Below, in pieces: positions 4,748 through 30,548 of a stretch of DNA of 64,000 nucleotides. The translations under genes were made by a program, and so were the position numbers. Source of the stretch: an uncultured Bacteroidia bacterium (lineage in GTDB: Bacteria; Bacteroidota; Bacteroidia; Bacteroidales; UBA932); assembly GCA_902780455.1 (NCBI GenBank), contig CACZFO010000002.1, forward strand, positions 23,493 to 87,492, given 5' to 3'. The number at the start of each line of letters is the position of its first letter. The first letter of the stretch is position 1. The notes beneath the pieces were generated by a model that made no database searches, was not told the origin of the DNA, and worked only from the letters and a program-made list of their open reading frames with translations.

Positions 4748-4829
4748 ATACCTTTATATCCGCATATGATATTGCTGCTTGAACTACGCTTCACTATGTC
4801 TGCTCAGCAACAATCTTATGCTGTTTTTG

Positions 4830-5708: not shown

Positions 5709-5719
5709 GATGCCTCCGA

Positions 5720-6712: not shown

Positions 6713-6804
6713 AACTGAAAATTACTTTATGTCTTTATTCTTCATAATATTTCTCGCGATTTGCACCGTCTTTTTCGGCCCGTTCATTATCTTTACGGTC
6801 TGTT

Positions 6805-7596: not shown

Positions 7597-7668
7597 ACGT
7601 TGCACAGTTTTTGCTTGCTGATTAACCGTCACTGAAGAAAAAAGAAAATATATAAATAGAATAAAAAC

Positions 7669-8382: not shown

Positions 8383-8404
8383 AACGATCTTTAACAGAAC
8401 AATT

Positions 8405-8818: not shown

Positions 8819-8839
8819 TATTTTTATCGCGATAAAACA

Positions 8840-9601
8840 ATGTATTCCCTTACAAAACAGCAGAAGCAGACGCAGGAAGGAAAGCGTATAGGCATGGTAC
8901 TGACCATAGCCTTCCACGTAGTGCTGCTGTTTGTGCTGGGAATAACAGGATTCAAGCTCGTGTACCCGCCGCCTGCAGAAAAAGGCATACTTCTGGAAAT
9001 CCCGCTTGAGGAGGTGCCGCAGAAAGCCGTTCCTAAAAAATCTCCGGAACCGAGGGCTCCTGAGGCAGATCCTACCAAAGAGGTGAATATCGTGCAGAAA
9101 GCCAAGGCTCCGCTCCAGTCTGAAAAGAGCGATGCAGGAAAACCGGCCACGGCCCAGGGCAAGGGCGATGTTGAAATCCCAGAGCCCAAGCGTGAGATAG
9201 ACAAGAGGGCCCTCTTTCCAAGTGCTGACAACAAGAAAGATACAGGCAAACCGCAGACTGCTGAGGAGGCTTCTCCAGAACTCAAGGCCGGGCATTCAAA
9301 AGGCAACACTGAAAACGGAAAACTGAACGGCAAACCTTCGGTCAGGCTGGAAGGCCGTTCAACCTTAGGCTCCCTTCCGCTTCCGGCCTATACCGTCAAT
9401 GAAAGCGGAACGGTGGTGGTGCAGATCGTAGTAAATGAAAAAGGAATCGTCACCAACGCCATACCGGGCCAGAAAGGCACCACGACCAACAACCCTACTC
9501 TCTGGGCAGAAGCCAGGAAAGCCGCACTCAAGGCCCGCTTCTCCCCTTCCGACGCCCCTACCCAGGTCGGCTACATCACCTACGTGTTCATCCTGAAATA
9601 G
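8840..9601 (+). CDS. tonB: TonB-family energy transducer
   Basis: 253 aa with an N-terminal TM segment, a Pro/Glu/Lys-rich linker (PEPRAPEADPTKE...) and a C-terminal TonB-like domain (GTVVVQIVVNEKGIVTNA...ARFSPS). Confidence 0.75.
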   Translation: MYSLTKQQKQTQEGKRIGMVLTIAFHVVLLFVLGITGFKLVYPPPAEKGILLEIPLEEVPQKAVPKKSPEPRAPEADPTKEVNIVQKAKAPLQSEKSDAGKPATAQGKGDVEIPEPKREIDKRALFPSADNKKDTGKPQTAEEASPELKAGHSKGNTENGKLNGKPSVRLEGRSTLGSLPLPAYTVNESGTVVVQIVVNEKGIVTNAIPGQKGTTTNNPTLWAEARKAALKARFSPSDAPTQVGYITYVFILK

Positions 9602-9609
9602 ATTCAGAC

Positions 9610-11052
9610 TCAGAAAGAAACTGTCTGGTAGTCTATCATCCGCGATATTGCTCTCTGGCATACCGGGCAGAAGAGAGGATATGTGTTGTCTCTCATCCTG
9701 CAGGTCGGGAACGGCCTGTAAATGCCTTCAGAAAGATAGCCGCCTCCTTCATAAATACCTACCTTATAGTCTGATTCAACGAGCGTTGAAAACGCCGGAA
9801 GTTGCTGGTCCGGCTTTGTAACCACCTCGAATCCATTGAAACTTCCGGTTCCAAGATGAACGGTTTTCTTCCTGGATTTCTTTGCTTCTGTCCGGGATTT
9901 TCCGGTCTTCGGTTCTGCTTCTCCCGGGCATAAGAACGCATCGTCAATCAAGTCTTTCCACTTGGTGTCAAAATCCACGAGGGTGGTGATGTTGGGTTCC
10001 CACGGTTCTGTATGAAAGTCATACTGGTCTGTGCCGTCATCGTAGAAGTACTCGTCCGCCAATCCGGCAAAGCTGTGGCCGAACTCGTGCACAACCACCG
10101 GCATGGCCCAGCGGTTGTGGGCTGCTGTCAGGACGTATGAATTCAGGATTCCGCCACCGCCGTAACTATCTGTGTTGGCAAGGATTATGATATGCTCGTA
10201 AGGAACGCTGGCAAGAGCGTCGTGAAGATCGAAAAGATGCAGTGTTGTAAGATAGCGGTCAGAATAGAACGTTGAAAAACTTGAAGAGAAAGCCGTCTGC
10301 TTCCACTCACCTTTCAGCGGAATGCTCACGCCGCTTTCCTTGCTCTCAACAGGCACGGCTATGAAATTCAGTCTGTCCGCCCTGCCCTTAAAAGGTTCAT
10401 AACTGAGAATCTGGTCTGCAGTTTCCTTTGCATCGCGATAGAAAACTTCCATCTCCTCAGCTGTATAACCTTCTCCAACTATTGCTATGTCAATTGCGCG
10501 GTGGCTGTCTCCGCCTTTGTGCACATAGCGGCATCTGTCCGGAGTATAGGGAGAAACTACCGGACGTATCAGAATGTCAGACGGATCCACAAGATGGGTC
10601 ATGGAAGCCGTTACGCTGTCTCTCTTGTCCAGTATTTCGATTGTCACAAACGCCGGGGCCTCCGGCATTGGAACAAGGAACACGTTCTCAAAAGCCTTGC
10701 GGGTATGCAGGGCCTCCGGAGTGCACTGCCACTCGGAGAAAAGAGTGGAGAACGAATTGCAGTAAAGGACCTTCCTGGTGGCGGAATCCCTGACTGTTAT
10801 CTGACCGTTGCCCCTCAGCAGAAGGCGGTCCATGTTGACGGTCCTTCCCCACCAGCCTTCCAGCCTTCCCATCTTGGCAAGAGAAATTTCGGTATGGGTT
10901 GCATCACCTGAGAATATGTAGTCGAGCCTCAGAGTATAACCGGAATCTGCAGGGCCTGCAGCCATGCGGGAAGCCGCATGGACCATTGAGCCGGAAAATG
11001 AAACAAGCACCGCCAGAAGAAGGATGGCGGCTTTCCTACTGTATGTAACCAA
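9610..11052 (-). CDS. Secreted M64 (IgA-peptidase-like) zinc metallopeptidase
   Basis: 480 aa with a signal peptide and the HEFGHSFAGLADEY zinc motif that I recognise from peptidase family M64. Its 5' end overlaps the era stop by 17 nt. Confidence 0.75.
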   Translation of the reverse strand: MVTYSRKAAILLLAVLVSFSGSMVHAASRMAAGPADSGYTLRLDYIFSGDATHTEISLAKMGRLEGWWGRTVNMDRLLLRGNGQITVRDSATRKVLYCNSFSTLFSEWQCTPEALHTRKAFENVFLVPMPEAPAFVTIEILDKRDSVTASMTHLVDPSDILIRPVVSPYTPDRCRYVHKGGDSHRAIDIAIVGEGYTAEEMEVFYRDAKETADQILSYEPFKGRADRLNFIAVPVESKESGVSIPLKGEWKQTAFSSSFSTFYSDRYLTTLHLFDLHDALASVPYEHIIILANTDSYGGGGILNSYVLTAAHNRWAMPVVVHEFGHSFAGLADEYFYDDGTDQYDFHTEPWEPNITTLVDFDTKWKDLIDDAFLCPGEAEPKTGKSRTEAKKSRKKTVHLGTGSFNGFEVVTKPDQQLPAFSTLVESDYKVGIYEGGGYLSEGIYRPFPTCRMRDNTYPLFCPVCQRAISRMIDYQTVSF

Positions 11053-12028
11053 AACGCTTAAGCTCCTTTTTGTTTTCCCTCCATGAAGGGTCTACTTTTA
11101 CGAAAATCTTGAGGAAGACTTTCTTCTCAAAGAACTTTTCCATGTCCTTGCGGGCCTGGGTGCCCACTCTCTTGAGTGCCGCTCCTCTTTTTCCTATGAT
11201 GATGCCCTTCTGCGATTCACGCACAACGTTTATCACAGCCTCTATGGAATACATTTCTTCTTCCTCGATGAACTGCTCTATCACAACCTCGGCGCAGTAA
11301 GGAATCTCCTTGCTGTAATTCTCAAGGATTTTCTCGCGCAGGATTTCGGATGCAAAGAAGCGCAGGTTCTTGTCTGTAAGCACGTCGCGGTCGTACCAGG
11401 CGTGCTGCTGAGGAAGAAGTGAAACTATCTTTTTAAGAAGAATGTCCGTGTTGATCTTGTTAAGTGCGCTCATAGGCAGGATCTCCGCCTTTGGAACAAG
11501 GCCGTGCCATTTTTCAACCAGGTCCTCTACGGTATGCTCCTCATGCTTGTTCCTGCTTGCGGCATCGGCCCCCTCAGCCTTCTTGCCGGAACCGGCTTGA
11601 GCGGCATCGCCGAGCAGCTTGTCTATCTTGTTGACTACCACGATTACAGGACATGAAAGGAGGTTGAGCTTGTCCACATACTCCTTGTTCTTCTCGGAAG
11701 ACTCGTAGACATCGGTGACATAGATGATTATGTCGGCATCGCCGATGGCTGTGTCAACAAAATTCATCATGGCCTCCTGAAGTTCGTAGGAAGGCTTGAG
11801 GATTCCGGGAGTATCTGAGAACACGATCTGGTAATCGTCTCCGTTGACTATTCCCATGATCCTGTGGCGCGTGGTCTGGGCCTTGGCGGTTACGATAGAC
11901 AGTTTCTCCCCCACCAGGGCGTTCATCAGAGTGGATTTGCCCACGTTAGGGTTGCCTATGATGTTTACGAAACCAGAGCGGTTTATCTTGTCCTCCTTGA
12001 CGTCAATGCCGTTCCTATTGTCTTCCAT
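11036..12028 (-). CDS. era: GTPase Era
   Basis: 330 aa with G1 GNPNVGKST, G3 DTPG, G4 NKID and a C-terminal KH domain. About 25-30 extra residues (GDAAQAGSGKKAEGADAASRNKHEEH) follow G4. Confidence 0.9.
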   Translation of the reverse strand: MEDNRNGIDVKEDKINRSGFVNIIGNPNVGKSTLMNALVGEKLSIVTAKAQTTRHRIMGIVNGDDYQIVFSDTPGILKPSYELQEAMMNFVDTAIGDADIIIYVTDVYESSEKNKEYVDKLNLLSCPVIVVVNKIDKLLGDAAQAGSGKKAEGADAASRNKHEEHTVEDLVEKWHGLVPKAEILPMSALNKINTDILLKKIVSLLPQQHAWYDRDVLTDKNLRFFASEILREKILENYSKEIPYCAEVVIEQFIEEEEMYSIEAVINVVRESQKGIIIGKRGAALKRVGTQARKDMEKFFEKKVFLKIFVKVDPSWRENKKELKRFGYIQ

Positions 12029-12071
12029 GAGCTTGATTACTTAGAACTTATGAAGTTAATGCACTGCTTTG

Positions 12072-13415
12072 CTACTCGTAGGAGCCCATTTTAAGTATGC
12101 CGATCTCCTTCTCGGTAAGGAAACGCCACTGGCCCCTCCTGAGATTCTTCTTTGTAAGACCTGCAAAATAGACCCTGTCCAACTTGACAACCTTGTAGCC
12201 GAGGCTCTCAAAGATCCTCCTGACAATACGGTTCCTGCCGCTGTGGATCTCTATTCCAACCTGGCTCTGGTCTCCGTCTATGTAGGAAAGAGCATCTGCG
12301 CTGATCATTCCGTCATCCAGGCGTATTCCCTTGAGGATCTTGTCAAAATCACCCTGGGAGAGGTTTGAATCCAGGAAGACGTGATAGATTTTCTTCTTGT
12401 TGAAAGAAGGATGTGTCAGTTTTTCGGTAAGCTCGCCGTCGTTGGTAAGAAGAAGAACTCCGGTAGTATCCCTGTCAAGACGGCCAACCGGATAAACTCT
12501 CTGAGGACACTTTCCGGCAACCAGGTCAAGGACTGTCTTGCGGTCGAGCTCGTCGTCTGTTGTAGTTACGCAGTTCTTAGGCTTGTTCATCAGTATGTAA
12601 ACCTTCTCCTCACCCTGCAGGAGCTGGCCGTCCATCCTCACCTGATCTGTACGGAACACCTTTGTACCCAGTTCGGTAACAACCTGACCGTTGACCGTAA
12701 TGATTCCCTGGACTATGTACTCGTCGGCTTCCCTGCGTGAGCAGACGCCGGAATTTGCAATGAAGCGGTTGAGGCGGATTCCTTCTTCATCTTTAGCCTT
12801 TGGCTTCCGCGGTTTTGGGGTATAGGCCTCAGCGCGTGGCTTTCTCGCTCCTGCTATCGTTTCTCTTCCTTCCAGCTGGCTTCTTACATTTTCAAAGTCT
12901 GACCGGGTACGCTTGACTCTTGTGCTTTTTACCGGAGCCTCTGAATCTGAACGTCTTGAGTAGGTTCTCTTTGGAGCTTCTGAATCTGACCTTCTGGTGT
13001 AGGTTCTCTTTGGAGCTTCTGAATCTGACCTTCTGGTGTAGGTTCTCCTTGGAGCTTCTGAATCTGAGCGTCTGGTGTAAGTTCTCTTTGGAGCCTCTGA
13101 ATCCGAACGTCTGGTGTAAGTTCTCTTTGGAGCCTCTGAGTCCGAACGTCTTGAGTAGGTTCTCTTTGGAGCCTCTGAATCAGAACGTCTTGAATAGCTT
13201 TTTTTTGGTGCCTCTGAGTCTGAACGTCTTGAATAGCTTCTTTTTGGTGCCTCTGAGTCTGAACGTCTTGAATAGCTTCTCTTTGGTGCGTCTGAATCTG
13301 ACCTTCTTGGAGCAGATGTTCCTCTGCTCTGAGCCCTTGATGAAGGCCTTCTTGCGGATGCTGCCTTTGGTGAAGGCTTCCTGCCTGTCTTCTTAGTATT
13401 TGTGCTGCGTATCAT
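12072..13415 (-). CDS. rluB: RluB/RsuA-family 23S rRNA pseudouridine synthase with a long Arg/Ser-rich repetitive N-terminal extension
   Basis: An S4 domain (IRLNRFIANSGVCSRREADEYI) and catalytic motif GRLDRDTTGVLL are present. The ORF is open to 13457, but MIRSTNTKK at 13415 is the more plausible start because it leaves room for the divergent promoter. Confidence 0.85.
   Translation of the reverse strand: MIRSTNTKKTGRKPSPKAASARRPSSRAQSRGTSAPRRSDSDAPKRSYSRRSDSEAPKRSYSRRSDSEAPKKSYSRRSDSEAPKRTYSRRSDSEAPKRTYTRRSDSEAPKRTYTRRSDSEAPRRTYTRRSDSEAPKRTYTRRSDSEAPKRTYSRRSDSEAPVKSTRVKRTRSDFENVRSQLEGRETIAGARKPRAEAYTPKPRKPKAKDEEGIRLNRFIANSGVCSRREADEYIVQGIITVNGQVVTELGTKVFRTDQVRMDGQLLQGEEKVYILMNKPKNCVTTTDDELDRKTVLDLVAGKCPQRVYPVGRLDRDTTGVLLLTNDGELTEKLTHPSFNKKKIYHVFLDSNLSQGDFDKILKGIRLDDGMISADALSYIDGDQSQVGIEIHSGRNRIVRRIFESLGYKVVKLDRVYFAGLTKKNLRRGQWRFLTEKEIGILKMGSYE
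12938..13312. repeat. Coding tandem repeat, 10 x 39 nt, encoding RRSDSEAPKR(S/T)Y(S/T)
   Basis: Ten consecutive 13-aa units are readable in the translation. The nucleotide copies differ at scattered positions. Confidence 0.95.
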
Positions 13416-22501: not shown

Positions 22502-23292
22502 AAAAGTTTGCCCTCATAGGAAATCCGATCTCCCACTCCAAGAGCCCCGAGCTTTTCCGCAAGGCTTTCCCCGGCAGCGGCATGTCATACGACCTTATTG
22601 AAAGAGACACCGTAGAGCAGTCCATCGCCTGTCTGAAAGAAAAAGGCTACGGCGGAGCAAACGTCACCGCCCCTTTCAAGGAGAGCGCAATGCAGTTTGT
22701 CACCGATCCCGACCCTGTTTCAAAGGCAATTGGCGCCACCAACCTCATCCTCTTCAGAAATGACAAGGTCTTCAGCTACAACACTGACTACCTGGCTGTA
22801 AGGAGAATGGTCCGGGAACTTAGGACCCGCCTTTGCAAATCAGATTATACTGCAGCTGCTGTCATCGGTTGTGGCGGAGCGGGAAAAGCCGCAGCCCTGG
22901 CCTGCCTCGACGAAGGCCTGCATACCTTCATTTCCAACCGCACAATGAAAAAGGCCGAAGATTTTGCAAGAACCATTTCAGGATACCTTCACGAGTTGGA
23001 GACCATAAGCATCGCCGAGGCTGACAGCATGCTGAAAAATGCAGACGGCAGCTTCCTTGTCATCTACACCATCCCAGCTCCCGACGGAGTTCTCAGTGAG
23101 GTTCTCAAAAGTTACTCACAGGCCGATCAAGAACCAACATGCAACAATCCGGACAGCAGAATTACAGTCATCGAGGCAAATTACAAGAATCCTTGCCTGA
23201 ATCCAGAAAGCGGCATCAGGTGGCTCAAGTACCAAGCCGTGGAGAGTTTCAGACTGATGACCGGAATTGCCCCGGACGAAAGCAGGTTTTAG
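22498..23292 (+). CDS. aroE: Shikimate dehydrogenase
   Basis: 264 aa with IGNPISHSKSP and an NAD(P) site GCGGAGKAAA. Confidence 0.85.
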   Translation: MKKFALIGNPISHSKSPELFRKAFPGSGMSYDLIERDTVEQSIACLKEKGYGGANVTAPFKESAMQFVTDPDPVSKAIGATNLILFRNDKVFSYNTDYLAVRRMVRELRTRLCKSDYTAAAVIGCGGAGKAAALACLDEGLHTFISNRTMKKAEDFARTISGYLHELETISIAEADSMLKNADGSFLVIYTIPAPDGVLSEVLKSYSQADQEPTCNNPDSRITVIEANYKNPCLNPESGIRWLKYQAVESFRLMTGIAPDESRF

Positions 23293-23301
23293 TTATCTTT
23301 C

Positions 23302-23333
23302 TTTGTAGCAAAAGAGTTTTTTTCCTATATTTG
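23302..23333 (+). promoter_or_regulatory. Consensus Bacteroides promoter for micro-ORF 1 / lipoprotein 1
   Basis: -33 TTTG (23302-23305) and -7 TATATTTG (23326-23333) with a 20-nt spacer. It matches the published TTTG / TAnnTTTG consensus. Confidence 0.65.
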
Positions 23334-23417
23334 TAACAGTTGAATTACTCCCTCCCTTATAGAGAGGGAAAATGTGTTGAAAATTAACAAAATTAACAAA
23401 TTACAGCCTTACTACAT

Positions 23418-23546
23418 ATGAAAAACAAGAAATTATATCTTGCTCCTGAATGTGAGTTTCAGGAGCTGGAACCGGAAAACAGCCTGCTTACGGGCAGCAC
23501 TACGGAAGGCATCGAGATACCCGTCAGTGATGAAGAAGATTTCTAA
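23418..23546 (+). CDS. Micro-ORF 1, 42 aa, acidic: MKNKKLYLAPECEFQELEPENSLLTGSTTEGIEIPVSDEEDF
   Basis: Hand-translated. It ends 7 nt before the lipoprotein ORF. It shares a fixed framework with three other micro-ORFs in the same relative position. Confidence 0.6.
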   Translation: MKNKKLYLAPECEFQELEPENSLLTGSTTEGIEIPVSDEEDF

Positions 23547-23553
23547 CCTTTAA

Positions 23554-24453
23554 ATGCGCACAAAAATGAAACTTACAAGATTATTTCTCGGAATTTGCTG
23601 CGCAGCCGCAGCTCTGGCAGCCTGCAGCAAGGCAGAAAAAGTAACCAAAGAGGCTCCAACCCGTCCGATGACCATCACCCTCAGCACAGATGAGCCTTCT
23701 ACAAAAATCTCTGTCGATTACAACGGCACAAACAAGTACACCCACAAATGGCAGACCGGAGACGCCCTCTCTGTTCTTATCGTTGTAGATGGAACTGGAT
23801 ACAACGACAAATTCGAGCTCGTTTCAGGAGCCGGAACCAACACCGGTGTATTCTCCTGTGCAACCAGCCACATACCTGCTTTAGGAAATATTGATGTAAC
23901 CTACATTTATCCTTATACCACGGAAAAAGATGGTGATAGCTGGTGGAAAAGAAGCATTGAAAACCAGGGGAACGGAAGCCTGGCCAATCTCGGCAAATAT
24001 GATATGCTCGCTGCTCGAGCAGCATATACTGATGGTGTTTACTCTTATTATATGTCAGGAGGAACCCCGGATTTTCAAGTGTTTTTCTTAAAACTTCCGG
24101 CAGGACTTCAGCTGGTAGGCAACTCCACCGGCAACCATTCGGTAGATATCGAATTGAGCGGCACAGGCGCTACCGATATTAACATCGATTTTCTCAACCA
24201 TATAAACCTTAAGACTGCGACTACAAATACAGGAACCATCAAGCTTACGAGTGTGGCCCTTTCAGATGGCAAACTCGTTTCAGATACATATATTGCGTGC
24301 GGTACTAACTATGGTTCAGACCGGACTTTTTCCCTGTCAGTTAAGGAAGGTTCTTCAAGCGTAAGATATGACCTTACCCATCCAGGGAGGTTATATGTAG
24401 GGAATGTGTACAAGCTTTCCCAGACCCATTTCTCTCCGGTAAAGAACTTTTAG
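23554..24453 (+). CDS. Fimbrillin/Mfa-like surface lipoprotein 1
   Basis: 299 aa with lipobox signal MKLTRLFLGICCAAAALAAC (alternative start 23566). It carries the motifs W-x-x-G-D-A-L-S and IYPY shared with the three downstream paralogues. Confidence 0.7.
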   Translation: MRTKMKLTRLFLGICCAAAALAACSKAEKVTKEAPTRPMTITLSTDEPSTKISVDYNGTNKYTHKWQTGDALSVLIVVDGTGYNDKFELVSGAGTNTGVFSCATSHIPALGNIDVTYIYPYTTEKDGDSWWKRSIENQGNGSLANLGKYDMLAARAAYTDGVYSYYMSGGTPDFQVFFLKLPAGLQLVGNSTGNHSVDIELSGTGATDINIDFLNHINLKTATTNTGTIKLTSVALSDGKLVSDTYIACGTNYGSDRTFSLSVKEGSSSVRYDLTHPGRLYVGNVYKLSQTHFSPVKNF

Positions 24454-24514
24454 TTAATCTCAACGTTTGCCGGGAAAGATACATCGCTGAGCCTTGGCAA
24501 AACTATAATACATG

Positions 24515-24541
24515 ATCCGGCTGTACCCCAGCCGGATTTTT
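24515..24541 (+). terminator. Rho-independent terminator after lipoprotein 1
   Basis: 9-bp stem atccggctg/cagccggat, a 5-nt loop and a T5 run. Confidence 0.8.
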
Positions 24542-24568
24542 GTTCCCCAGGATTTTTTTATATCTTTG
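24539..24568 (+). promoter_or_regulatory. Consensus Bacteroides promoter for micro-ORF 2 / lipoprotein 2
   Basis: -33 TTTG (24539-24542) and -7 TATCTTTG (24561-24568) with an 18-nt spacer. Confidence 0.6.
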
Positions 24569-24643
24569 TAAGCAAGGAATTCTCTCCTCTTTATAGAGGG
24601 GGGGGAATGCATTGAAAATCAACAAATTATAGCCTCATAAATT

Positions 24644-24778
24644 ATGAAAGACAAACTTCCTTACAAAGCTCCGGTATGCGAAGAAGACATTCTTGAGCCG
24701 GAAAACAGCCTGCTGGCAGCCAGTCCGCTGGACATCAATTATGACCTCCCTGATCCCGATGATGAAAAAGATTTCTAA
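24644..24778 (+). CDS. Micro-ORF 2, 44 aa, acidic: MKDKLPYKAPVCEEDILEPENSLLAASPLDINYDLPDPDDEKDF
   Basis: Hand-translated. It ends 6 nt before the lipoprotein ORF. It is a paralogue of micro-ORF 1 (shared LEPENSLL and a C-terminal DF). Confidence 0.6.
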   Translation: MKDKLPYKAPVCEEDILEPENSLLAASPLDINYDLPDPDDEKDF

Positions 24779-24784
24779 CCTTAA

Positions 24785-25687
24785 ATGCGCGCAACCATGA
24801 AACTCACAAGATTTTTAGTCGGTATCTGCTGCGCAGCGGCAGTGCTTACCTCCTGCAGCAAGGATGAGAACGTAAAAGTTGAAGAAACCTCTCCTGTAAC
24901 CATAACCATCAGCACTGATGACCTGGCTACCAAGACCGTCATCGGACGCGATGACGAATCCGGGAAATACACCCACACCTGGAAAGACGGCGATGCCTTG
25001 AGCTGCATCATAGCACACAGTAGTACAGAGTATTATATGGACAAGTTCGTACTGGTTTCCGGAGCCGGAACCAAGACAGGAACCTTCTCCTGCTCCAACA
25101 GCCATGTCAAGGCAGAGGGATATACTTATCCTGTAATAATCTATCCTTACTCGGATGAAGAAGCCGGCGGCTGGTATAACTGGTCCTGGGAAAACCAGGA
25201 AGGTGGAAGCCTGGAAAACCTGTCAAAATATATTGTACTTTATGCCAGGGCCACCTTCCAAGACAAGGTTTTCAAAGGATGGAACGAAAAGCCAGTATTC
25301 GTTTCTGATTCATATTTCCTGAAATTCCCTCAAGGCTTGCAGATTGTAGGCAACGCTCCAGGAAACCACACTGTAGATTTGACCTTCAGTGCATCAGGAA
25401 GTTCCACTGTAAAAAACCGCCAACAATATGCAAAAAATTATTATTCGGGTACTTCTGTTGACGGAAGCATAAAACTTACAGGCGTGGCTCTGACAGACGG
25501 TAAACTTGCAAAAGACACTTATATGTATGTCAGGGCAAGCCGTGAACCAGGCTCCACTTTCACACTTGAAGTAAAAGAAGGCACAAACTCTGTAAGCTAC
25601 ACCTTGACAAGTGGTTCCAGCCACAAGAGCACAGGAGGTGTATACAAACTTAACCAGAGCAACTTCACTCCGATCCTGGATTTCTAG
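24785..25687 (+). CDS. Fimbrillin/Mfa-like surface lipoprotein 2 (paralogue of lipoprotein 1)
   Basis: 300 aa with lipobox MKLTRFLVGICCAAAVLTSC (alternative start 24797). It is collinear with lipoprotein 1 at roughly half identity by eye. Confidence 0.7.
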   Translation: MRATMKLTRFLVGICCAAAVLTSCSKDENVKVEETSPVTITISTDDLATKTVIGRDDESGKYTHTWKDGDALSCIIAHSSTEYYMDKFVLVSGAGTKTGTFSCSNSHVKAEGYTYPVIIYPYSDEEAGGWYNWSWENQEGGSLENLSKYIVLYARATFQDKVFKGWNEKPVFVSDSYFLKFPQGLQIVGNAPGNHTVDLTFSASGSSTVKNRQQYAKNYYSGTSVDGSIKLTGVALTDGKLAKDTYMYVRASREPGSTFTLEVKEGTNSVSYTLTSGSSHKSTGGVYKLNQSNFTPILDF

Positions 25688-25743
25688 AAGAAACTCTGGA
25701 GTGGCGTTTATTATCAGTTATAATCGCCTATCACAAATATGTT

Positions 25744-25772
25744 ACGGCAGGACAGTCTCCTGCCGTTTTTTT
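25744..25772 (+). terminator. Rho-independent terminator after lipoprotein 2
   Basis: 9-bp stem acggcagga/tcctgccgt, a 5-nt loop and a T7 run. Confidence 0.8.
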
Positions 25773-25858
25773 GTTTATCGTGATAGAAAACACCCCTATT
25801 CTAGGTTCATTATAGTTCATAATCTATTCTCTCCCTGGAATTATAAAAATTCTTAATA

Positions 25859-25894
25859 AATAATTGCAATTATTGATTATTCTTAATAATTTTG
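25859..25894 (+). promoter_or_regulatory. Candidate promoter (-7 TAATTTTG, 25887-25894) with a perfect 16-bp palindrome AATAATTGCAATTATT (25859-25874) over the -33 region
   Basis: The palindrome was verified by reverse-complementing. It is flanked by the direct repeat ATTCTTAATAA. The region is AT-rich, so chance occurrence is not negligible. Confidence 0.4.
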
Positions 25895-25919
25895 CGCGAA
25901 TTTGCATAATTAGGGTCAT

Positions 25920-26057
25920 ATGAATATGAAAATTAACTATCTGAGCCCTCGGATTACGGTTATAGGAGTAACCATGACCAAAGGAATCCTGACTGTATCC
26001 GGCGGCGATTATGAACATCCGGAACCAGGAGACCCAATAGGTTCCGACGAAGACTGA
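25920..26057 (+). CDS. Micro-ORF 3, 45 aa: MNMKINYLSPRITVIGVTMTKGILTVSGGDYEHPEPGDPIGSDED
   Basis: Hand-translated. It ends 15 nt before lipoprotein 3. It has the same Y-x-x-P ... IL-x-x-S framework and an acidic tail. Confidence 0.5.
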   Translation: MNMKINYLSPRITVIGVTMTKGILTVSGGDYEHPEPGDPIGSDED

Positions 26058-26072
26058 CAGGAGGATGGTATC

Positions 26073-27773
26073 ATGAAAAGATTATTCAGAGTTCTGAGTT
26101 ACGCCACCCTCGTGGCATTGGTGTTTTCCTGCAGCAGCAAGGAGGACGGACTGTTCGTTCCTGCCCAGAAGGATAACACAATCATTACCGTTTCGGCCTC
26201 TGTAGAGAGTTCTCCAACCAAGACTACCCTGCAGGACGACCTTTCGATTATCTGGAATGCTGAAGATGCCATTTCACTCCTGGCTTCCGGTGTAAACTAT
26301 GAGTTCAAGACAAGCTCTGCAAAACTGAAGGACGGCGGTCTGAGGGCTAATTTCGACCATGAAGGCGAAATCCCTCAGCAGAGTTACTACGCCATTTATC
26401 CATTCAACAGCGGCGCACTCCTCAACGGAAGCGTTATAACTACCCAACTCCCTGCCATCCAGACGGCCGCAGCAAACTCCTTCGGTCCCGGTGCCAACCT
26501 GGCCGTTGCATACGCAGACTGGGGTCAGCCGTTCAAGTTCAGGAATGCTGCTGCCATGATCAAGGTCAGCTTCAAGACCACCGATGCCGATGCTGCCATC
26601 AAGTCCATAACTTTCCGCAGCCTCAATAGCAGCATCCTGCTTTCAGGAACCGTACAGCTGACACCTACCGTTGAAGACGGAGTGGTTACCAATGTGGCTA
26701 TGACCGTTACAAGCGGCCAGCCTTACGTTACCCTCCAGGCTCCTGACGGACAGTATCTCCAGCCAAATACAGAGTATTACATCACTGCTGCTCCTGCTGC
26801 CCTTACCTCTGGCTACCGCATTGAATTCGAGACCGCAGACGGCCTGACCTTCGGCAGGTATTACAGCGATGCAACCTACAAATCTGCAGTTCTCAGTCGC
26901 AATACAATCTCTGCTACCGGAAAGAAGAACCTGGACAATTTTGAAATCACAGGATACTTCCGTGTCCGCTACGCTGAGACCAACAACCACCCTGGCATAG
27001 GTGAATACCTTGTCGTGTACAAGATGCCGGACGGCAGCTACCGCATCCTCAATGAAGATAAGACCGATACCTATATCGTAAAGGGAACTCATTTTGCCCT
27101 AAGTGGTTCACAAATGATTAATGTTTTAAGCCAAACTTTAACTGATGTTGGAAAACAAGAGTTGGAAAGAATGGTTGCTTTTGTGTTCAGAAACGCATGG
27201 CTTTCTTCTTCAAACTCTGACGATAACATTTCCTTTGCAGACGATGAACTTATAACTTCTACTTCTCCTATCGGCATTTCGGTAAACAGATACAGGTATA
27301 ACTCAAAATACTATTACTTTGCAAATGTTGTTTTATACAACCGTACTGACAACACCAATATTACTCTTACACTTGACAATCTGACTTGTAAGCTGAATTC
27401 TTCAGATTCCGGAACTGTAGATGGATTATTCAATACAAACACTTCTAGTGTGAATCCACAGGGTAATCCTAACTCCTGCTCTGATCTGGTAAATGCGCTG
27501 ATGATGCATGCAACCTTTTCAGTTCCAATATTCGGAGACCAAACGGCTACTGTTAAGAAGGGAGCTACGGATGCATTGAAAAAGGACAATGCTTTTTCCG
27601 GTGCATTCACTACTGCTTCTCACAATACTCTTGAAGGAAAACCTACTTACGAGGTTTACAAGGATCATTTCATGATCAGAACTAACGACCTATTGAGCGG
27701 CGCTTCCCTTTCCGATATCTGGATTTATAAACATGGAACTAAGAATTACGCATATTATATAAACAATAAATAA
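26073..27773 (+). CDS. Large surface lipoprotein 3: fimbrillin-like N-terminal half plus a C-terminal region of unknown function
   Basis: 566 aa with lipobox LVALVFSCSS. N-terminal motifs are IIWNAEDAIS, YYAIYPF, LPAIQ and NLAVAY. Confidence 0.7.
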   Translation: MKRLFRVLSYATLVALVFSCSSKEDGLFVPAQKDNTIITVSASVESSPTKTTLQDDLSIIWNAEDAISLLASGVNYEFKTSSAKLKDGGLRANFDHEGEIPQQSYYAIYPFNSGALLNGSVITTQLPAIQTAAANSFGPGANLAVAYADWGQPFKFRNAAAMIKVSFKTTDADAAIKSITFRSLNSSILLSGTVQLTPTVEDGVVTNVAMTVTSGQPYVTLQAPDGQYLQPNTEYYITAAPAALTSGYRIEFETADGLTFGRYYSDATYKSAVLSRNTISATGKKNLDNFEITGYFRVRYAETNNHPGIGEYLVVYKMPDGSYRILNEDKTDTYIVKGTHFALSGSQMINVLSQTLTDVGKQELERMVAFVFRNAWLSSSNSDDNISFADDELITSTSPIGISVNRYRYNSKYYYFANVVLYNRTDNTNITLTLDNLTCKLNSSDSGTVDGLFNTNTSSVNPQGNPNSCSDLVNALMMHATFSVPIFGDQTATVKKGATDALKKDNAFSGAFTTASHNTLEGKPTYEVYKDHFMIRTNDLLSGASLSDIWIYKHGTKNYAYYINNK

Positions 27774-27783
27774 TTATCAGTCT

Positions 27784-27909
27784 ATGAAAACAATTAAGGA
27801 AACTTATGAGAAACCATACTCAAAAAGCATTGAATATGAGTTTCAAGGCATTGTATGCGCCACAAACCTGGAACCTATTGACGACGAAGGAGAAATTCCT
27901 TTGGACTAG
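27784..27909 (+). CDS. Micro-ORF 4, 41 aa: MKTIKETYEKPYSKSIEYEFQGIVCATNLEPIDDEGEIPLD
   Basis: Hand-translated. It starts 10 nt after the lipoprotein 3 stop and ends 36 nt before lipoprotein 4. It has the same framework and an acidic tail. Confidence 0.5.
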   Translation: MKTIKETYEKPYSKSIEYEFQGIVCATNLEPIDDEGEIPLD

Positions 27910-27945
27910 AGGCATTTTATAGTTTAACTTTTTAAACCTGCGATT

Positions 27946-29871
27946 ATGAAAAAGTTATTGTTAGTTCTGGCTTCAGCATTGATGCTCTTTGCCTGCAGCA
28001 AGGAAGATGTTGCTCCGGAAATGGCTAAGGGTTCTGAAGGAAAGGTTTTCCACGCATCTTTTGAAGGCACCACAGATCCTGAAACTAAAGTTTATGCAGA
28101 TGAACAGCTTCGCCTCAGATGGGATTCAGAAGATTTGATAACTATCTTTGAAAGGAATACCGCTAATTCAAAGTACAAAATAAAGACCCTTTCACCCAAC
28201 GGAAATGCTTGCGATTTTACTTCAGTAGAATCCTCACAAGCAGGTGCTACTCTTCCTAACTTCTATGCCGTTTATCCTTATGCTGAAAACACATCCATAA
28301 GCGCTTCTGATCCATACAAGATTGAAGTTCTCCTTCCTAATGCTCAGGAATATAGAGAAAATTCCTTCGGAATTGGCGCTAACACCATGGTGGCTGTTGC
28401 CGATGATGATGATCTGATGTTCAAGAATGTATGCGGTTATCTCAGATTCCGTTTCTACGGAGAGGGTGTGAAAGTCAGCGGAGTTACATTGGAAGGAAAC
28501 AATGGTGAAAAACTGGCGGGAAGTGCCCTGATTACTCCAGGTGAGAATCCAACAGTAGAGATGGTTGAGTCCAGCGCCCAGAACAGTGTAGAATTAATTT
28601 GCGAACCAGCCGTTGAATTGGGTAGCGTCAGCACAGATTCCACCGTGTTCATTTTTGCTATACCTCCTACAACATTCTCAAAGGGTTTCAAGGTAATTGT
28701 CAGGAGTGAGGACGATAAAGTCTTCGAGAGGGTTATTACTTCAAAGAGTATTACAATAGACCGCAATAAGCTTAAGAGTATTCCTACCCTCAAAGTTGAG
28801 CTTACCGATCCTAATTATCAGTTAGTTAAGAATAATATTGATATCACAGATGGAGATTATGTACTTGCTTATCACAACGGAGAAGGTTTCAATCTCTTCA
28901 GCTTCACCAAGACTATGGCCAATGCTGAAACCGCAGCAAACAATGTCAAGGACGTTCACGGTCTGAGTGCCCTGCTCAGCAAGGGGTCACAGATCTATGC
29001 AACTGTTGTAGGAAAGAACTACGTAACCGTTGAAGGAAATGCCGGTGCTGATTTTATCAATATAACTGATGAAGTTGAAGCTGAAGCCAAGCTTTCCGTT
29101 ACTGGAACAGCTGACGAAGCTAACTTGACTCTTTCTAGCGGCAGCTACAGTCTCCGCCTCGACAAGGTTATAACCAACATCAACGACGACTACTCAGCAA
29201 CCCTTTCCGTTCAGCCGAATGCCCCGGATGCTCTCAACATCATGTATTCTCTCCGTGGCGGCAAGGTTGTCATCACATTCAACGAGTTGATCAACTTTGC
29301 GGTAGACCAGGCAAAGAAGGAAGGCGTTACCTTTACCCCTGAGCAGATTGCCCGCCTTCGCAGCGGCTTCTTGAAACTCTGCAAGCTTGCCAAGGAAGAG
29401 CTGGCTGAGCACAACATGGGTAACCTTATGGACATCGATCTGAATACCAATGTATTTGATGTCATTGCACAGTACTATGACAATGCTGCATCATATTCAC
29501 TTCAGATTGCTCCTGAGAAGAAGTTCGGTTGGGCAACCCCTATCGGATTCTACAAGGGTGATGACGGATTCACTGCTAACATAGCTCTGCCTCAGGCAGG
29601 ATGGTTCGACCGCGTTGCAGAATCTCTCACCAAGAATAACAGAGCAGATTTCGTTGCTTATTGGGCCCAGTATGACAGCCAGTACCATATCCTTGATATC
29701 TCAAACTTCTTCCAGAGGCTTGCCGGCAAATTCTATGATGAATTGGACCCTAGTACATATGCTCTCCTTCAGCAGGTAGACTTCAGGGCTATCGGAAGAG
29801 TTTATGGCAGATATGTCAACCGCTTCAACGACAAGCTCGAGAAGGTTTACCTCTACAAGAAGATTAAATAG
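27946..29871 (+). CDS. Large surface lipoprotein 4: fimbrillin-like N-terminal half plus a C-terminal region of unknown function
   Basis: 641 aa with lipobox LMLFACSK. N-terminal motifs are LRWDSEDLIT, FYAVYPY, LPNAQ and NTMVAVA. Confidence 0.7.
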   Translation: MKKLLLVLASALMLFACSKEDVAPEMAKGSEGKVFHASFEGTTDPETKVYADEQLRLRWDSEDLITIFERNTANSKYKIKTLSPNGNACDFTSVESSQAGATLPNFYAVYPYAENTSISASDPYKIEVLLPNAQEYRENSFGIGANTMVAVADDDDLMFKNVCGYLRFRFYGEGVKVSGVTLEGNNGEKLAGSALITPGENPTVEMVESSAQNSVELICEPAVELGSVSTDSTVFIFAIPPTTFSKGFKVIVRSEDDKVFERVITSKSITIDRNKLKSIPTLKVELTDPNYQLVKNNIDITDGDYVLAYHNGEGFNLFSFTKTMANAETAANNVKDVHGLSALLSKGSQIYATVVGKNYVTVEGNAGADFINITDEVEAEAKLSVTGTADEANLTLSSGSYSLRLDKVITNINDDYSATLSVQPNAPDALNIMYSLRGGKVVITFNELINFAVDQAKKEGVTFTPEQIARLRSGFLKLCKLAKEELAEHNMGNLMDIDLNTNVFDVIAQYYDNAASYSLQIAPEKKFGWATPIGFYKGDDGFTANIALPQAGWFDRVAESLTKNNRADFVAYWAQYDSQYHILDISNFFQRLAGKFYDELDPSTYALLQQVDFRAIGRVYGRYVNRFNDKLEKVYLYKKIK

Positions 29872-29920
29872 TAAAAGTTTTATACAGCTATTACTGAAAA
29901 ATAGCGTTGTTGTTTTTTAG

Positions 29921-29956
29921 AGACTGCCGGTCCGTTTGGGCTGGCAGTCTTGTTTT
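29921..29956 (+). terminator. Rho-independent terminator after lipoprotein 4
   Basis: A stem of about 13 bp (agactgccggtcc / gggctggcagtct, including G-U pairs), a tetraloop, then tgtttt. Confidence 0.7.
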
Positions 29957-30029
29957 ATGAGGGCCATCGGTTTTGCATATTATCATTTTTTGGAGTAACT
30001 TTACTCGGTTAAATTTTTGAATTCAAATT

Positions 30030-30548
30030 ATGTCTTTTAACAAAGTATTGATTTTAGGAAATGCCGCCGCAGCACCTGAGGTAAGGCATTTGGAAGGAGG
30101 AGCGGTTGTGGCTAACTTCCGTGTTGCAACATCAGAAGTTTTCACAGACCGCAGCGGCAACCGCCAGGAGAGGACCGAGTGGCACAACATCGTGTGCTGG
30201 AGACGTTTGGCAGAAACTGCCGAGAAATTTATCCAGAAAGGAACACAGGTATTCATTGAAGGAAGGATCCGCACACGTGAATATACAGACCAGAACAATC
30301 AGAGAAGGTTTGTAACTGAAATCTACGCAGACAACATCCAGCTCACCGGCAGGCGTCCTGAAGGCCAGGCACCGGCCCAGAACCAGGGCGGATACCAGCA
30401 GAATGGATATCAGCAGGGCGGATATCAGCAAGGTGGATATCAGCCTCAGAAGCCCCAGCAGAGTGCACCTCAGGCACCTTCTGCTCCTCAGGACTTCCCT
30501 GCAATGGATGACTTCAATTCAACTGAGGCAAATGACCTTCCGTTCTGA
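30030..30548 (+). CDS. ssb: Single-stranded DNA-binding protein
   Basis: 172 aa with an OB fold (NKVLILGNAAAAPEVRH...), a Gly/Gln/Tyr-rich linker (GGYQQ repeats) and an acidic tip ending DLPF. Confidence 0.9.
   Translation: MSFNKVLILGNAAAAPEVRHLEGGAVVANFRVATSEVFTDRSGNRQERTEWHNIVCWRRLAETAEKFIQKGTQVFIEGRIRTREYTDQNNQRRFVTEIYADNIQLTGRRPEGQAPAQNQGGYQQNGYQQGGYQQGGYQPQKPQQSAPQAPSAPQDFPAMDDFNSTEANDLPF

Follow-up and report, generated by a model that had tools for sequence, protein, structure and literature searches.

Probable orphan RiPP-like precursor peptide genes paired with predicted pilin-like lipoprotein genes in an uncultured Bacteroidia bacterium

The question raised by this locus is whether four very short open reading frames, each encoding 41-45 aa, are genuine peptide genes and, if so, what kind of peptide they encode. 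They lie in a 64-kb stretch of DNA (hereafter, the window). The initial annotation described them as a family with a fixed N-terminal framework and a variable acidic tail, and proposed that selection acts at the peptide level and that the layout loosely resembles a leader/core precursor with a double-glycine-like site. All four ORFs and their sequences are as described there, so that the observation itself is confirmed. It was not mentioned, however, that every one of them lies immediately upstream (7-36 nt) of a lipoprotein gene. The features of the locus are listed in the table; the four cassettes form three transcription units.

Table. Features of the locus in window coordinates, with the supporting data.
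Coordinates	Strand	Feature	Support
23326..23333	+	Candidate Bacteroidota -7 promoter box (TATATTTG) of unit 1	Pattern TANNTTTG; aligns with a conserved CTATnTTTGTAA block in orthologous upstream regions; the pattern itself is not enriched in the window
23349..23369	+	5' leader hairpin (TCCCTC / GAGGGA arms) between the promoter box and micro-ORF 1	Read from the sequence; folds within the minimum-free-energy structure, z = -1.85; a pyrimidine arm and a purine arm recur in most orthologous loci
23418..23546	+	Micro-ORF 1, 42 aa, putative LPP-like precursor: leader with Y7-x-x-P10, conserved S27, acidic tail ending in DF	dN/dS 0.11-0.12; E = 4.7e-5 against the HMM of enzyme-linked precursors
23554..24453	+	LP1, 299 aa lipoprotein (lipobox ..LAAC|SKAE) with a predicted type V pilin-like fold	AlphaFold2 model, pLDDT 81; Foldseek top hits BF1861, Mfa4 and BF1858, probability 1.0
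24514..24548	+	Intrinsic-terminator-like hairpin plus T run, ending unit 1
24561..24568	+	Candidate -7 promoter box (TATCTTTG) of unit 2	Pattern search and comparison of upstream regions
24579..24608	+	5' leader hairpin of unit 2	13-bp stem, -19.2 kcal/mol, z = -2.94
24644..24778	+	Micro-ORF 2, 44 aa, paralogue of micro-ORF 1 (diverged tandem duplication, period about 1231 nt)	dN/dS 0.23 versus L011; weak HMM score (E = 3.7), but fourth of 598
24785..25687	+	LP2, 300 aa lipoprotein	48% identical to LP1
25744..25776	+	Intrinsic-terminator-like hairpin plus T run, ending unit 2
25887..25894	+	Candidate -7 promoter box (TAATTTTG) of unit 3	Pattern search
25920..26057	+	Micro-ORF 3, 45 aa (…ILTVS-GGDYEHPEPGDPIGSDED)	E = 1.1e-3 against the HMM; orthologues upstream of LP3 homologues in L012, L013 and L014
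26073..27773	+	LP3, 566 aa lipoprotein, N-terminal domain homologous to the LP1 family	hhalign: probability 97.2%, E = 3e-11; 52 homologues found
27784..27909	+	Micro-ORF 4, 41 aa, starting 10 nt after the LP3 stop with no promoter box or terminator between	dN/dS 0.18 versus L011; E = 0.16 against the HMM; orthologues in L012 and L011
27946..29871	+	LP4, 641 aa lipoprotein, N-terminal ~300 residues homologous to the LP3 family	hhalign: probability 99%, E = 7e-18
29920..29961	+	Intrinsic-terminator-like hairpin (14 bp), ending unit 3

We first asked whether the ORFs could be due to chance or could mark an RNA-level element. A regular expression for the framework (Y-x-x-P, 11-12 residues, [ILV][LVC]xx[ST], then a tail) matches only these four, both among 187 ATG-started ORFs of 30-60 aa and among 368 ORFs with any start codon, and the four are among only six ORFs with an Asp/Glu fraction of at least 0.33 in the last 15 residues. 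Since the expression was fitted after the fact, independent tests matter more. An HMM built only from 19 enzyme-linked relatives from other loci ranks the four as the top 4 of 598 small window ORFs. In orthologues the ORF remains intact and of the same length even where the lipoprotein is only 56% identical and synonymous sites are near saturation, with dN/dS of 0.08-0.23 where dS is not saturated. In one of the homologous loci, L011, DNA conservation starts exactly at the ATG of the ORF4-like gene, and changes within its conserved N-terminal coding part are mostly synonymous. No Rfam family matches the region 23000-30200. Apart from the small size of the ORFs, nothing speaks for chance or for an RNA element, and we consider this possibility already refuted by the conservation pattern.

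The same data bear on the possibility that the micro-ORFs are regulatory upstream ORFs, for which only the act of translation matters (through translational coupling or protection of the mRNA) in setting expression of the downstream lipoprotein. Each micro-ORF is the first cistron, close to the lipoprotein start, and units 1 and 2 have a promoter box and a 5' hairpin upstream. However, purifying selection at the amino-acid level acts along the whole peptide; the sequence motif is superfamily-wide and independent of the downstream gene; some members (P0118, P0127 and that at locus L068) are not followed by a lipoprotein gene; and relatives are accompanied by dedicated peptide-handling enzymes. 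We regard this explanation as very unlikely. One correction concerns the tail, which is variable only between paralogue types: among orthologues it is as conserved as the front (0.72 versus 0.70 identity for the ORF1 type).

To which family do the peptides belong? A profile of the window peptides returned 49 proteins at E <= 1e-3 among 1.84 billion, nearly all of 35-69 aa, which share Y..P..EVIEL.E..IL.AS and a G/D/E/P-rich tail. This large micro-protein family has no Pfam or NCBIfam model; its members have a K-rich start, an invariant Y-x-x-P (although one ORF3-type orthologue, at locus L013, has lost the Pro), a beta-strand-like stretch, a conserved Ser and an acidic Gly/Pro tail. ORF3 and ORF4 lack the alternating Glu pattern. 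A DNA pattern for the motif returned 120 metagenome loci, from which 115 complete micro-ORFs under 100 aa (83 unique sequences) were recovered; trigger factor accounts for three false positives. The AlphaFold2 model of a family member is extended and without secondary structure, yet pLDDT is 81-85 over residues 1-20, as expected for a leader that binds by strand addition.

The pairing with a lipoprotein gene extends well beyond the window. Of 67 unique micro-ORFs with enough flanking sequence, 58 have a downstream ORF of at least 100 aa, with a median gap of 30 nt; 46 of these downstream proteins have a lipobox, many carry the W..GD motif, and some carry Mfa_like_1, BspA-LRR or GLUG domains. 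The pairing is found widely in rumen and human-gut Bacteroidales metagenome contigs and is apparently undescribed. As in type V pilins of Bacteroidales (the FimA / Mfa superfamily), the partner proteins have a lipoprotein signal peptide, a two-domain pilin fold (predicted, for LP1) and a conserved T-K shortly before the W..[GE]D motif, at the position where pilins are cleaved; the cleavage role is inferred from the pilin family. They differ in that the window proteins give no Pfam Mfa_like_1 hit, there is no usual multi-gene fimbrial operon, and LP3 and LP4 have large additional C-terminal regions of unknown fold.

In many relatives the pair is followed by five genes, in the order PqqD-type RRE, NTP_transf_5 nucleotidyltransferase, MsbA-like ABC exporter, HprK-related kinase and S24/S26 peptidase. 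Of 21 pattern loci with at least 7 kb downstream, 15 carry two or more of RRE, NTP transferase, kinase and peptidase, and most carry all of these plus the ABC exporter; the remaining six have no enzymes within 7 kb. Pfam and NCBIfam identify PqqD, NTP_transf_5, ABC_membrane plus ABC_tran, HprK_rel_A/ScmC (weak) and sigpep_I_arch / Peptidase_S24; the kinase assignment rests on sub-threshold family hits plus tblastn similarity to the low-GC clusters. The complete cluster is present in Phocaeicola massiliensis (OY725995.1). In the low-GC loci L091 and L111 the order is kinase, RRE, peptidase, NTP transferase, peptide and then a secreted surface protein. Conversely, Prevotella sp. oral taxon 299 has a kinase-peptidase-RRE cluster for which our motif search found no precursor in the 18.6 kb examined.

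This is the gene set that defines the clusters of linear polyphosphorylated peptides (LPP), RiPPs described in Bacillota (Popov et al., Nat Commun 2026; PMC13381572). The LPP precursors, LppA, and our peptides are both short, with a conserved N-terminal leader containing Y-x-x-P, a conserved Ser about 18-20 residues after the Tyr and variable C-termini; in LPP the leader is YxxPxVLxHQxIxFETxxS, the leader peptidase is SpI-like and RRE-dependent, and Ser+3 is phosphorylated. Both LPP clusters and the relatives of our peptides include a discrete RRE and an archaeal-type SPase-like peptidase, and both are sometimes found near capsule loci. The differences are that our host belongs to Bacteroidales, whereas the paper states that LPPs are restricted to Bacillota and never mentions Bacteroidota, lipoproteins or pilins; that the leader consensus is Y..P.hEVIEhEhE..IL.AS; that a type V pilin-like lipoprotein gene follows the precursor; and that the window copies are orphans. 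The distance from the Tyr to the conserved Ser is 19-20 residues here and 18 in LPP, so the cleavage and phosphorylation sites cannot be placed, and no chemistry has been shown for any Bacteroidales member.

The leader/core reading is further supported by two strains that differ at one locus by a cassette swap (L039 and L034). They are about 100% identical through the upstream region and the leader, diverge right after the conserved Ser, through the tail, the lipoprotein (47% identity) and the RRE (54%), and return to 94-100% identity for the NTP transferase, ABC exporter, kinase, peptidase and the flanking gene. In addition, the peptide P0002, found in a close strain with only one cassette, is a chimera of the ORF1 leader and the ORF2 tail.

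The interpretation in the initial annotation is thus partly supported. Its statements that the four form a family, that selection acts on the peptide, that a hydrophobic signal peptide is absent, that the layout is leader/core-like and that no maturation enzyme lies nearby all hold. The double-glycine/C39 analogy is not supported. Such leader peptides also lack a Sec signal, are exported by an ABC transporter and have small residues at the junction, and some members of our family have SGG after the leader; but the cluster exporters (518-552 aa) carry only ABC_membrane and ABC_tran, with no Peptidase_C39, Gly occurs at the two positions after the Ser in only 29% of members each, and there is an RRE-dependent serine peptidase instead. 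In the characterised LPP system, moreover, the conserved Ser is the phosphorylation site at core position +3, not the residue before the cut (PMC13381572). A lasso-peptide precursor is equally doubtful. The Y-x-x-P leader resembles the [Y/W]xxP lasso leader motif, which is RRE-binding, the C-terminal region is acidic in both, and two family members give sub-threshold hits to the leader part of the paeninodin model NF033524 (E = 0.012 and 0.068); however, the gene lists of complete clusters show no macrolactam synthetase and no B2 cysteine protease, the peptidase is of the S24/S26 type, and the acidic ring-acceptor position is not conserved in several members inspected by hand. We consider both readings very unlikely.

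None of the five enzyme families is detectable in the window, and none lies next to any homologous ORF1/2-, ORF3- or ORF4-type cassette examined (L001-L015 and L149), so that maturation of these particular subfamilies is unproven. ORF2 and ORF4 also match the enzyme-linked profile only weakly on their own. It remains possible, though in our view unlikely, that the peptides are unmodified accessory micro-proteins of the pilin-like lipoproteins, e.g., strand-donating, capping or assembly-control peptides or small regulators coordinating paralogous adhesin loci, which in this lineage work without RiPP enzymes and resemble LPP precursors through shared ancestry only. Adjacency to a lipoprotein gene is the most constant feature of the family and the only association seen for the window's own subfamilies; tails are as conserved as leaders among orthologues and co-vary with the lipoprotein; and the extended predicted structure would also suit a strand-addition ligand. 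On the other hand, in the absence of a signal peptide and of the ABC exporter the peptide would stay in the cytoplasm while the lipoprotein is exported, the Y-x-x-P kept invariant in orphan cassettes is most simply explained by continued RRE recognition, and most sufficiently long loci do carry the enzymes.

We believe that the micro-ORFs are genuine genes for short peptides of a large, unannotated family of RiPP-type precursors related to the LPP precursors, and assign this reading a probability of roughly 0.6. Each peptide would consist of a leader (K-rich start, Y-x-x-P, a strand-forming stretch, then [IL][LV]xx[S/T]) and an acidic core tail specific to each type. The coding nature of the genes, their family membership, the lipoprotein pairing and the enzyme clusters of relatives rest on the analysis itself, while the processing is inferred by homology to LPP: the RRE would bind the Y-x-x-P leader as an added beta-strand, the kinase would phosphorylate the conserved Ser, the S24/S26 peptidase would remove the leader, and the ABC exporter would export the acidic core. 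It is likewise inferred that the four orphan cassettes are matured in trans by an enzyme set elsewhere in the genome. RiPP systems with many precursors and one enzyme, such as the prochlorosins, offer a parallel, as several paralogous precursors with a conserved leader and divergent cores are encoded there without adjacent enzymes; here, however, each precursor is paired with its own surface lipoprotein gene, and the trans-acting enzyme set has not been located in this genome. The role of the lipoprotein is pure inference. Since core tail and lipoprotein are inherited and exchanged together, we presume that the exported peptide acts together with its cognate pilin-like lipoprotein at the cell surface, and that the island is a strain-variable surface-variation locus.

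The initial annotation had reported four micro-ORFs sharing one framework, and this observation is confirmed: all four are present on the forward strand with the coordinates listed in the table below, and their sequences are as originally described. A regular expression for the framework matches only these four, both among the 187 ATG-started ORFs of 30-60 aa in the window and among the 368 ORFs with any start codon. They are also four of only six ORFs with an Asp/Glu fraction of at least 0.33 in the last 15 residues, and their net charge is -4 to -9. The regular expression was fitted to the data; thus, the comparative evidence is stronger. We consider it nearly certain that the four ORFs are real, selected peptide genes.

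LP1, the 299 aa protein encoded 7 nt downstream of micro-ORF 1, has 13 homologues, and a scan of the genome collection found relatives in five genomes, all of them uncultured rumen Bacteroidales MAGs. In each syntenic locus, between aroE and ssb, an ORF of 41-44 aa with the same framework precedes the lipoprotein gene, even where the lipoprotein is only 56% identical. Pairwise Nei-Gojobori estimates give dN/dS of 0.08-0.23 wherever dS is not saturated; in the other comparisons of the ORF1, ORF2 and ORF4 types pS is 0.6-0.9 against pN of 0.1-0.35, whereas the most diverged ORF3-type pairs give higher ratios, 0.5-0.8. In the related locus L011 the DNA upstream of the ORF4-like gene cannot be aligned; conservation starts at the ATG, and most changes in the first 31 codons are synonymous. 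No Rfam family matches 23000-30200. Frameshifts in orthologues or an RNA-level element, which had been named beforehand as grounds for rejecting the proposal, were therefore not found, and the RNA-element reading is refuted by dN/dS, by the intact ORFs and by the absence of Rfam hits. Chance ORFs are likewise very unlikely. One correction to the initial annotation, which described a fixed front and a variable tail, is needed: among orthologues the tail is as conserved as the front (0.72 versus 0.70 identity for the ORF1 type, and 0.67 versus 0.48 for ORF3 against its relative P0111), and it varies only between paralogue types.

Each micro-ORF is followed after 7, 6, 15 or 36 nt by a gene for a protein with a lipoprotein signal peptide and a lipobox Cys (AAC/SK, TSC/SK, FSC/SS and FAC/SK, respectively). 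Candidate Bacteroidota -7 promoter boxes (TAnnTTTG) and terminator-like hairpins were located as tabulated, and nothing of either kind lies between LP3 and micro-ORF 4; we therefore read three transcription units, namely micro1-LP1, micro2-LP2 and micro3-LP3-micro4-LP4. Units 1 and 2 are a diverged tandem duplication with a period of about 1231 nt and 73-92% identity in the repeated segments detected. Both micro-ORF 1 and micro-ORF 2 have a hairpin between the candidate promoter box and the start codon, with one pyrimidine-rich and one purine-rich arm. Similar arms with different sequences recur in most orthologous loci, although the locus L004 lacks them; the folding z-scores are -1.85 and -2.94 in the window and mixed in other loci. 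It may be a stabilising element at the 5' end of the mRNA.

Coordinates of the features in the window and in the compared loci (positions are those of the named sequence)
Sequence	Feature	Position	Strand	Length
Window	Candidate -7 promoter box, unit 1	23326		
Window	Hairpin upstream of micro-ORF 1	23349-23369		
Window	Micro-ORF 1	23418-23546	+	42 aa
Window	Stretch of micro-ORF 1 considered with the chimeric peptide of L146	23466-23497		
Window	Terminator-like hairpin	24514		
Window	Candidate -7 promoter box, unit 2	24561		
Window	Hairpin upstream of micro-ORF 2	24579-24608		
Window	Micro-ORF 2	24644-24778	+	44 aa
Window	Stretch of micro-ORF 2 considered with the chimeric peptide of L146	24692-24723		
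Window	Terminator-like hairpin	25744		
Window	Candidate -7 promoter box, unit 3	25887		
Window	Micro-ORF 3	25920-26057	+	45 aa
Window	Micro-ORF 4	27784-27909	+	41 aa
Window	Terminator-like hairpin	29920		
L146	Strain with a single cassette and a chimeric peptide	831-965		
L011	ORF4-like gene and LP4 remnant	7481-7797		
L039	Locus compared with L034	1559-9042		
L034	Locus compared with L039	708-8787		
L091	Low-GC cluster	6366-8884		
L111	Low-GC cluster	3035-5858		
L143	Atypical family member P0127	8001-8357		118 aa
L017	Atypical family member P0118	5001-5174		57 aa
Phocaeicola massiliensis OY725995.1	Peptide	5315-5431		
Phocaeicola massiliensis OY725995.1	Lipoprotein	5600-8869		1089 aa
Phocaeicola massiliensis OY725995.1	RRE	8970-9242		
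Phocaeicola massiliensis OY725995.1	NTP transferase	9270-10379		
Phocaeicola massiliensis OY725995.1	ABC exporter	10383-12005		
Phocaeicola massiliensis OY725995.1	Kinase	12013-12897		
Phocaeicola massiliensis OY725995.1	Peptidase	12875-13321		
L150 (Prevotella sp. oral taxon 299 F0039, NC_022111.1 108860-127495)	Kinase, S24/S26 peptidase and PqqD RRE cluster	8752-10396		

The AlphaFold2 model of LP1 (pLDDT 81) matches the Bacteroidales type V pilin superfamily with its FimA/Mfa-type two-domain fold: Foldseek gives BF1861, Mfa4, BF1858 and BACOVA_04982, each at probability 1.0, and for the first three E is about 4e-6 with TM of 0.4-0.45. The N-terminal domains of the LP3 family and of LP4 are linked to it by profile comparison only (probability 97.2% with E = 3e-11 and 99% with E = 7e-18, respectively). 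None of the eight proteins hits a Pfam or NCBIfam model, and LP1-LP4 have no hit to Mfa_like_1 or related fimbrillin models even at E <= 1; however, some partner proteins of relatives do hit, at E = 5.6e-7 in the locus L020 (above the Pfam cut-off) and at E = 1.3e-5 in the locus L055 (just below it). Of the features connected with pilin maturation, only a conserved T-K before the W..[GE]D motif is seen; removal of the N-terminal strand and polymerisation by strand exchange would be inferred from the superfamily.

The island varies between strains. Related genomes carry one cassette between aroE and ssb. L011 carries an ORF2-type cassette plus the ORF4-like gene, which has a conserved front but a replaced tail and precedes a 66 aa remnant of LP4; an internal deletion in the remnant joins the signal peptide region to the last residues (KVYLYKKIK), and the start codon used in the window is mutated from ATG to ATA; it looks like a decaying cassette. 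A strain whose SSB is identical to that of the window over the 134 residues available (locus L146) has only one cassette, and its peptide, P0002, is a chimera of the ORF1 leader and the ORF2 tail; this is consistent with recombination between the two conserved leader ends that deleted LP1, or with the reverse duplication. A shufflon or inversion switch using the leader as the recombination site was considered and rejected, since the window has only direct, diverged repeats and no meaningful inverted repeats, although recombination at the leader end does occur between direct copies. The micro3-LP3-micro4-LP4 module occurs in three unrelated genomic contexts in other Bacteroidales, at lipoprotein identities of 68%, 48% and 36%, and both micro-ORFs are kept each time. 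The neighbouring ssb gene and the terminal DF of the peptides prompted the idea that the SSB C-terminal tail (ending in LPF) is mimicked; however, other loci lie in unrelated contexts, so the adjacency is coincidental. A secretion-monitor-type arrest peptide was also rejected, as the peptides have no hydrophobic segment and the conserved part is N-terminal.

An exhaustive profile search with the four window peptides and P0002 returned 49 proteins at E <= 1e-3 among 1.84 billion representatives, nearly all of them 35-69 aa. Their consensus is a K-rich start, Y-x-x-P, x-x-E-V-I-E-L-x-x-E, x-x-I-L-x-A-S and then a Gly/Asp/Glu/Pro-rich tail. The Y and P of the motif, which all four window peptides contain, are invariant in the 49-sequence alignment. 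Pfam and NCBIfam searches with the four peptides and with ten relatives assigned no family, and the only name that any source gives to the relatives is "hypothetical protein"; a tblastn search of plasmids with a 40 aa member gave no match.

A degenerate DNA pattern for Y..P..EV[IV]E.E.E returned 120 metagenome loci; the samples include human-gut metagenomes, and some loci come from the same JGI project as the rumen-relative locus L002. Of the matches, 115 are complete micro-ORFs under 100 aa (83 of them unique), and three are trigger factor. Of 67 unique micro-ORFs with at least 600 nt of downstream sequence, 58 have an ORF of at least 100 aa starting within -10 to +250 nt, with a median gap of 30 nt, and 46 of these downstream proteins have a lipobox. 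The partner proteins range from about 300 to about 1280 aa and share the pilin-like N-terminus (W..GD motif); some carry Mfa_like_1, BspA-type LRR or GLUG modules. The tails are rich in Gly, Asp and Glu, and two thirds of them (56 of 83) have Trp, Tyr or Phe among the last three residues, with 25 ending in Trp; micro-ORFs 1 and 2 end in DF, and we cannot propose an explanation for the terminal aromatic residue. The loci L019 and L020 lie about 26 kb apart on the same 140 kb contig, where the same 36 aa micro-protein precedes lipoproteins of 1241 and 1242 aa; one copy lies directly after a capsule-type glycosyltransferase cluster, and L020 also carries a second pair, a 40 aa peptide plus a 462 aa Mfa_like_1 protein. 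Two family members are atypical: in P0127 the leader is followed by a Cys-rich extension, and the gene lies 2 kb from an ScmC/HprK-like kinase gene, while P0118 ends in …RGIWGDLWYENQ and lies just after a 682 aa protein whose C-terminus looks like a T9SS sorting domain, rather than before a lipoprotein.

The key lead came from two low-GC loci (L091 and L111, GC 0.30-0.31), in which the micro-ORF (…EVIEFELEDSIAASGDFG…) is preceded on the same strand by four genes in the order kinase, RRE, peptidase, NTP transferase. These encode a P-loop kinase, an 87-88 aa PqqD-like protein, a 145 aa protein with a GxSMxPF motif and a protein of about 390 aa. A large secreted surface protein with Flg_new repeats follows the micro-ORF; the L091 protein also has LTD and Big_2 domains. 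In L091 and three other loci of this subgroup the start of that protein overlaps or abuts the stop codon of the precursor, so a surface protein right after the precursor is not confined to Bacteroidales. The use of the four proteins as tblastn queries showed that many Bacteroidales loci carry homologues just downstream of the micro-ORF and lipoprotein pair. Pfam and NCBIfam identify the set as PqqD (an RRE), NTP_transf_5, an MsbA-like ABC exporter, an HprK-related/ScmC-like kinase (at sub-threshold scores) and an S24/S26 peptidase whose closest model is archaeal-type signal peptidase I. Of 21 pattern loci with at least 7 kb downstream, 15 carry at least two of the four enzyme families, and most carry these plus the exporter, while six carry none of the four; many of these loci are copies of the same cluster type, so that the count of independent cluster types is smaller. 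A named species, Phocaeicola massiliensis, has the complete cluster. Conversely, Prevotella sp. oral taxon 299 F0039 has a kinase-peptidase-RRE cluster, with an NTP_transf_5 gene about 7 kb away on the other strand, and our motif search found no family micro-ORF in the 18.6 kb fetched, which is the mirror image of the enzyme-less cassettes in the window.

The cluster contents bear on two further readings, both of which we consider unlikely. A lasso peptide precursor is not supported, since the gene lists of complete clusters contain neither a macrolactam synthetase nor a B2 protease, and the acidic acceptor (Asp/Glu at core position 7-9) is not conserved in a hand check of several members. The analogy with double-glycine leaders and PCAT substrates, made in the initial annotation, is not supported either: the cluster exporters carry ABC_membrane and ABC_tran only, with no C39 domain, and the Gly frequency is 29% at each of the two positions after the Ser.

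This five-function set is the one that defines the linear polyphosphorylated peptide (LPP) RiPP clusters of Bacillota (Popov et al., Nat Commun 2026; PMC13381572). According to that paper, the precursors are 35-200 aa, with the conserved leader YxxPxVLxHQxIxFETxxS and variable C-termini; the RRE LppB binds the Y-x-x-P leader by strand addition and presents it to the SpI-like peptidase LppS, which cuts after T-1, and the kinase LppK puts several phosphates on Ser+3. The paper states that LPPs, whose biological role is unknown, are restricted to Bacillota, and it never mentions Bacteroidota, lipoproteins or pilins. Our literature searches for the peptide strings, for small ORFs upstream of fimbrillin genes, for ScmC and for PqqD/HprK in Bacteroidetes gave nothing relevant, and we found no description of the Bacteroidales version.

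An HMM built only from 19 enzyme-linked precursors ranks the four window ORFs first to fourth among 598 small window ORFs. ORF1 (E = 4.7e-5) and ORF3 (E = 1.1e-3) are individually significant, while ORF4 (E = 0.16) and ORF2 (E = 3.7) are not; however, ORF2 is a clear paralogue of ORF1, and ORF4 holds the same position in its operon. The conserved Ser lies 20 residues after the Tyr in ORF1-3 and a Thr lies 19 residues after it in ORF4, against 18 residues for the phospho-acceptor Ser of LppA; this Ser is present in at least 90% of the 49-sequence alignment. None of the five enzymes was found in the window by tblastn or HMM, nor in the flanks of any homologous cassette that we could inspect (loci L001-L015 and L149); the 10 kb flanks of L149, an LP3/LP4-type cassette, contain only an NTP_transf_5 gene inside an opposite-strand capsule locus. 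The window cassettes are therefore orphans, the co-location that is seen in many relatives is absent here, and maturation in this organism is inferred.

Two strains carrying the same human-gut Bacteroidales locus, L039 and L034, were compared gene by gene. They are about 100% identical in the 400 nt upstream and through the leader, diverge immediately after the conserved Ser (KGFAVS/CGTEDYNPQPW versus KGFAVS/APDYVDRPLN), stay divergent through the lipoprotein (47% identity) and the RRE (54%), and return to 94-100% identity for the NTP transferase, ABC exporter, kinase, peptidase and the flanking gene. Core tail, lipoprotein and RRE thus behave as one exchangeable cassette behind a constant leader and constant enzymes, although it is odd that the RRE varies with the core and lipoprotein rather than with the leader it is supposed to bind. 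The P0002 chimera shows the same breakpoint region in the window's own lineage. This is the best evidence that the junction noticed in the initial annotation is a real module boundary, and the leader/core interpretation is to this extent upheld; the interpretation offered there is supported in part. The comparison also speaks for a joint function of core and lipoprotein, which remains an inference. The AlphaFold2 model of the peptide alone is extended with no secondary structure, yet confidently so over residues 1-20; it is uninformative about partners but fits a ligand that binds by strand addition.

The analysis itself establishes that the four ORFs are conserved peptide genes, that each is the first cistron before a pilin-like lipoprotein gene, that they belong to a family other members of which sit in clusters with the LPP enzyme set, and that the family has a modular leader and core. 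The binding of the RRE to the Y-x-x-P leader, the phosphorylation of the conserved Ser, the removal of the leader by the S24/S26 peptidase and the export of the acidic core by the ABC exporter are inferred from the LPP work, while we presume, without direct support, that the orphan cassettes are served in trans, that the exported peptide acts with its cognate lipoprotein at the surface, and that the island is a strain-variable surface-variation locus. We put the probability of this overall explanation at about 0.6. The main rival is that in this lineage the peptides are unmodified partners or regulators of the lipoproteins; a pure upstream-ORF role is unlikely.

The finding is more interesting than a set of chance micro-ORFs: compared with the LPP precursors, described only in 2026 and said to be confined to Bacillota, these are LPP-like precursors in Bacteroidales, coupled to type V pilin-like lipoproteins and present here as enzyme-less cassettes. 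It gives a family assignment to many unannotated 35-70 aa genes in gut metagenomes, and the conserved leader motif offers annotators a simple way to find them, whereas precursor cassettes detached from their enzymes, of which the window is an example, would be missed by standard cluster-mining tools. It is tempting, though tentative, to propose further that Bacteroidales possess a widespread, undescribed RiPP system of the LPP type, in which an exported, phosphorylated acidic peptide is matched core-by-core to a type V pilin-like surface lipoprotein, with core, lipoprotein and RRE swapped as one cassette behind a constant leader and constant enzymes, and in which genomes such as this one carry arrays of orphan precursor-plus-lipoprotein cassettes served in trans; together this would be a combinatorial mechanism for varying the cell surface, or strain-specific recognition. 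The occurrence of the same enzyme set in rumen and human-gut Bacteroidales, joined in many loci to a pilus-like surface lipoprotein gene, and the exchange of peptide core and lipoprotein together point to a concrete, testable role for these peptides at the cell surface.
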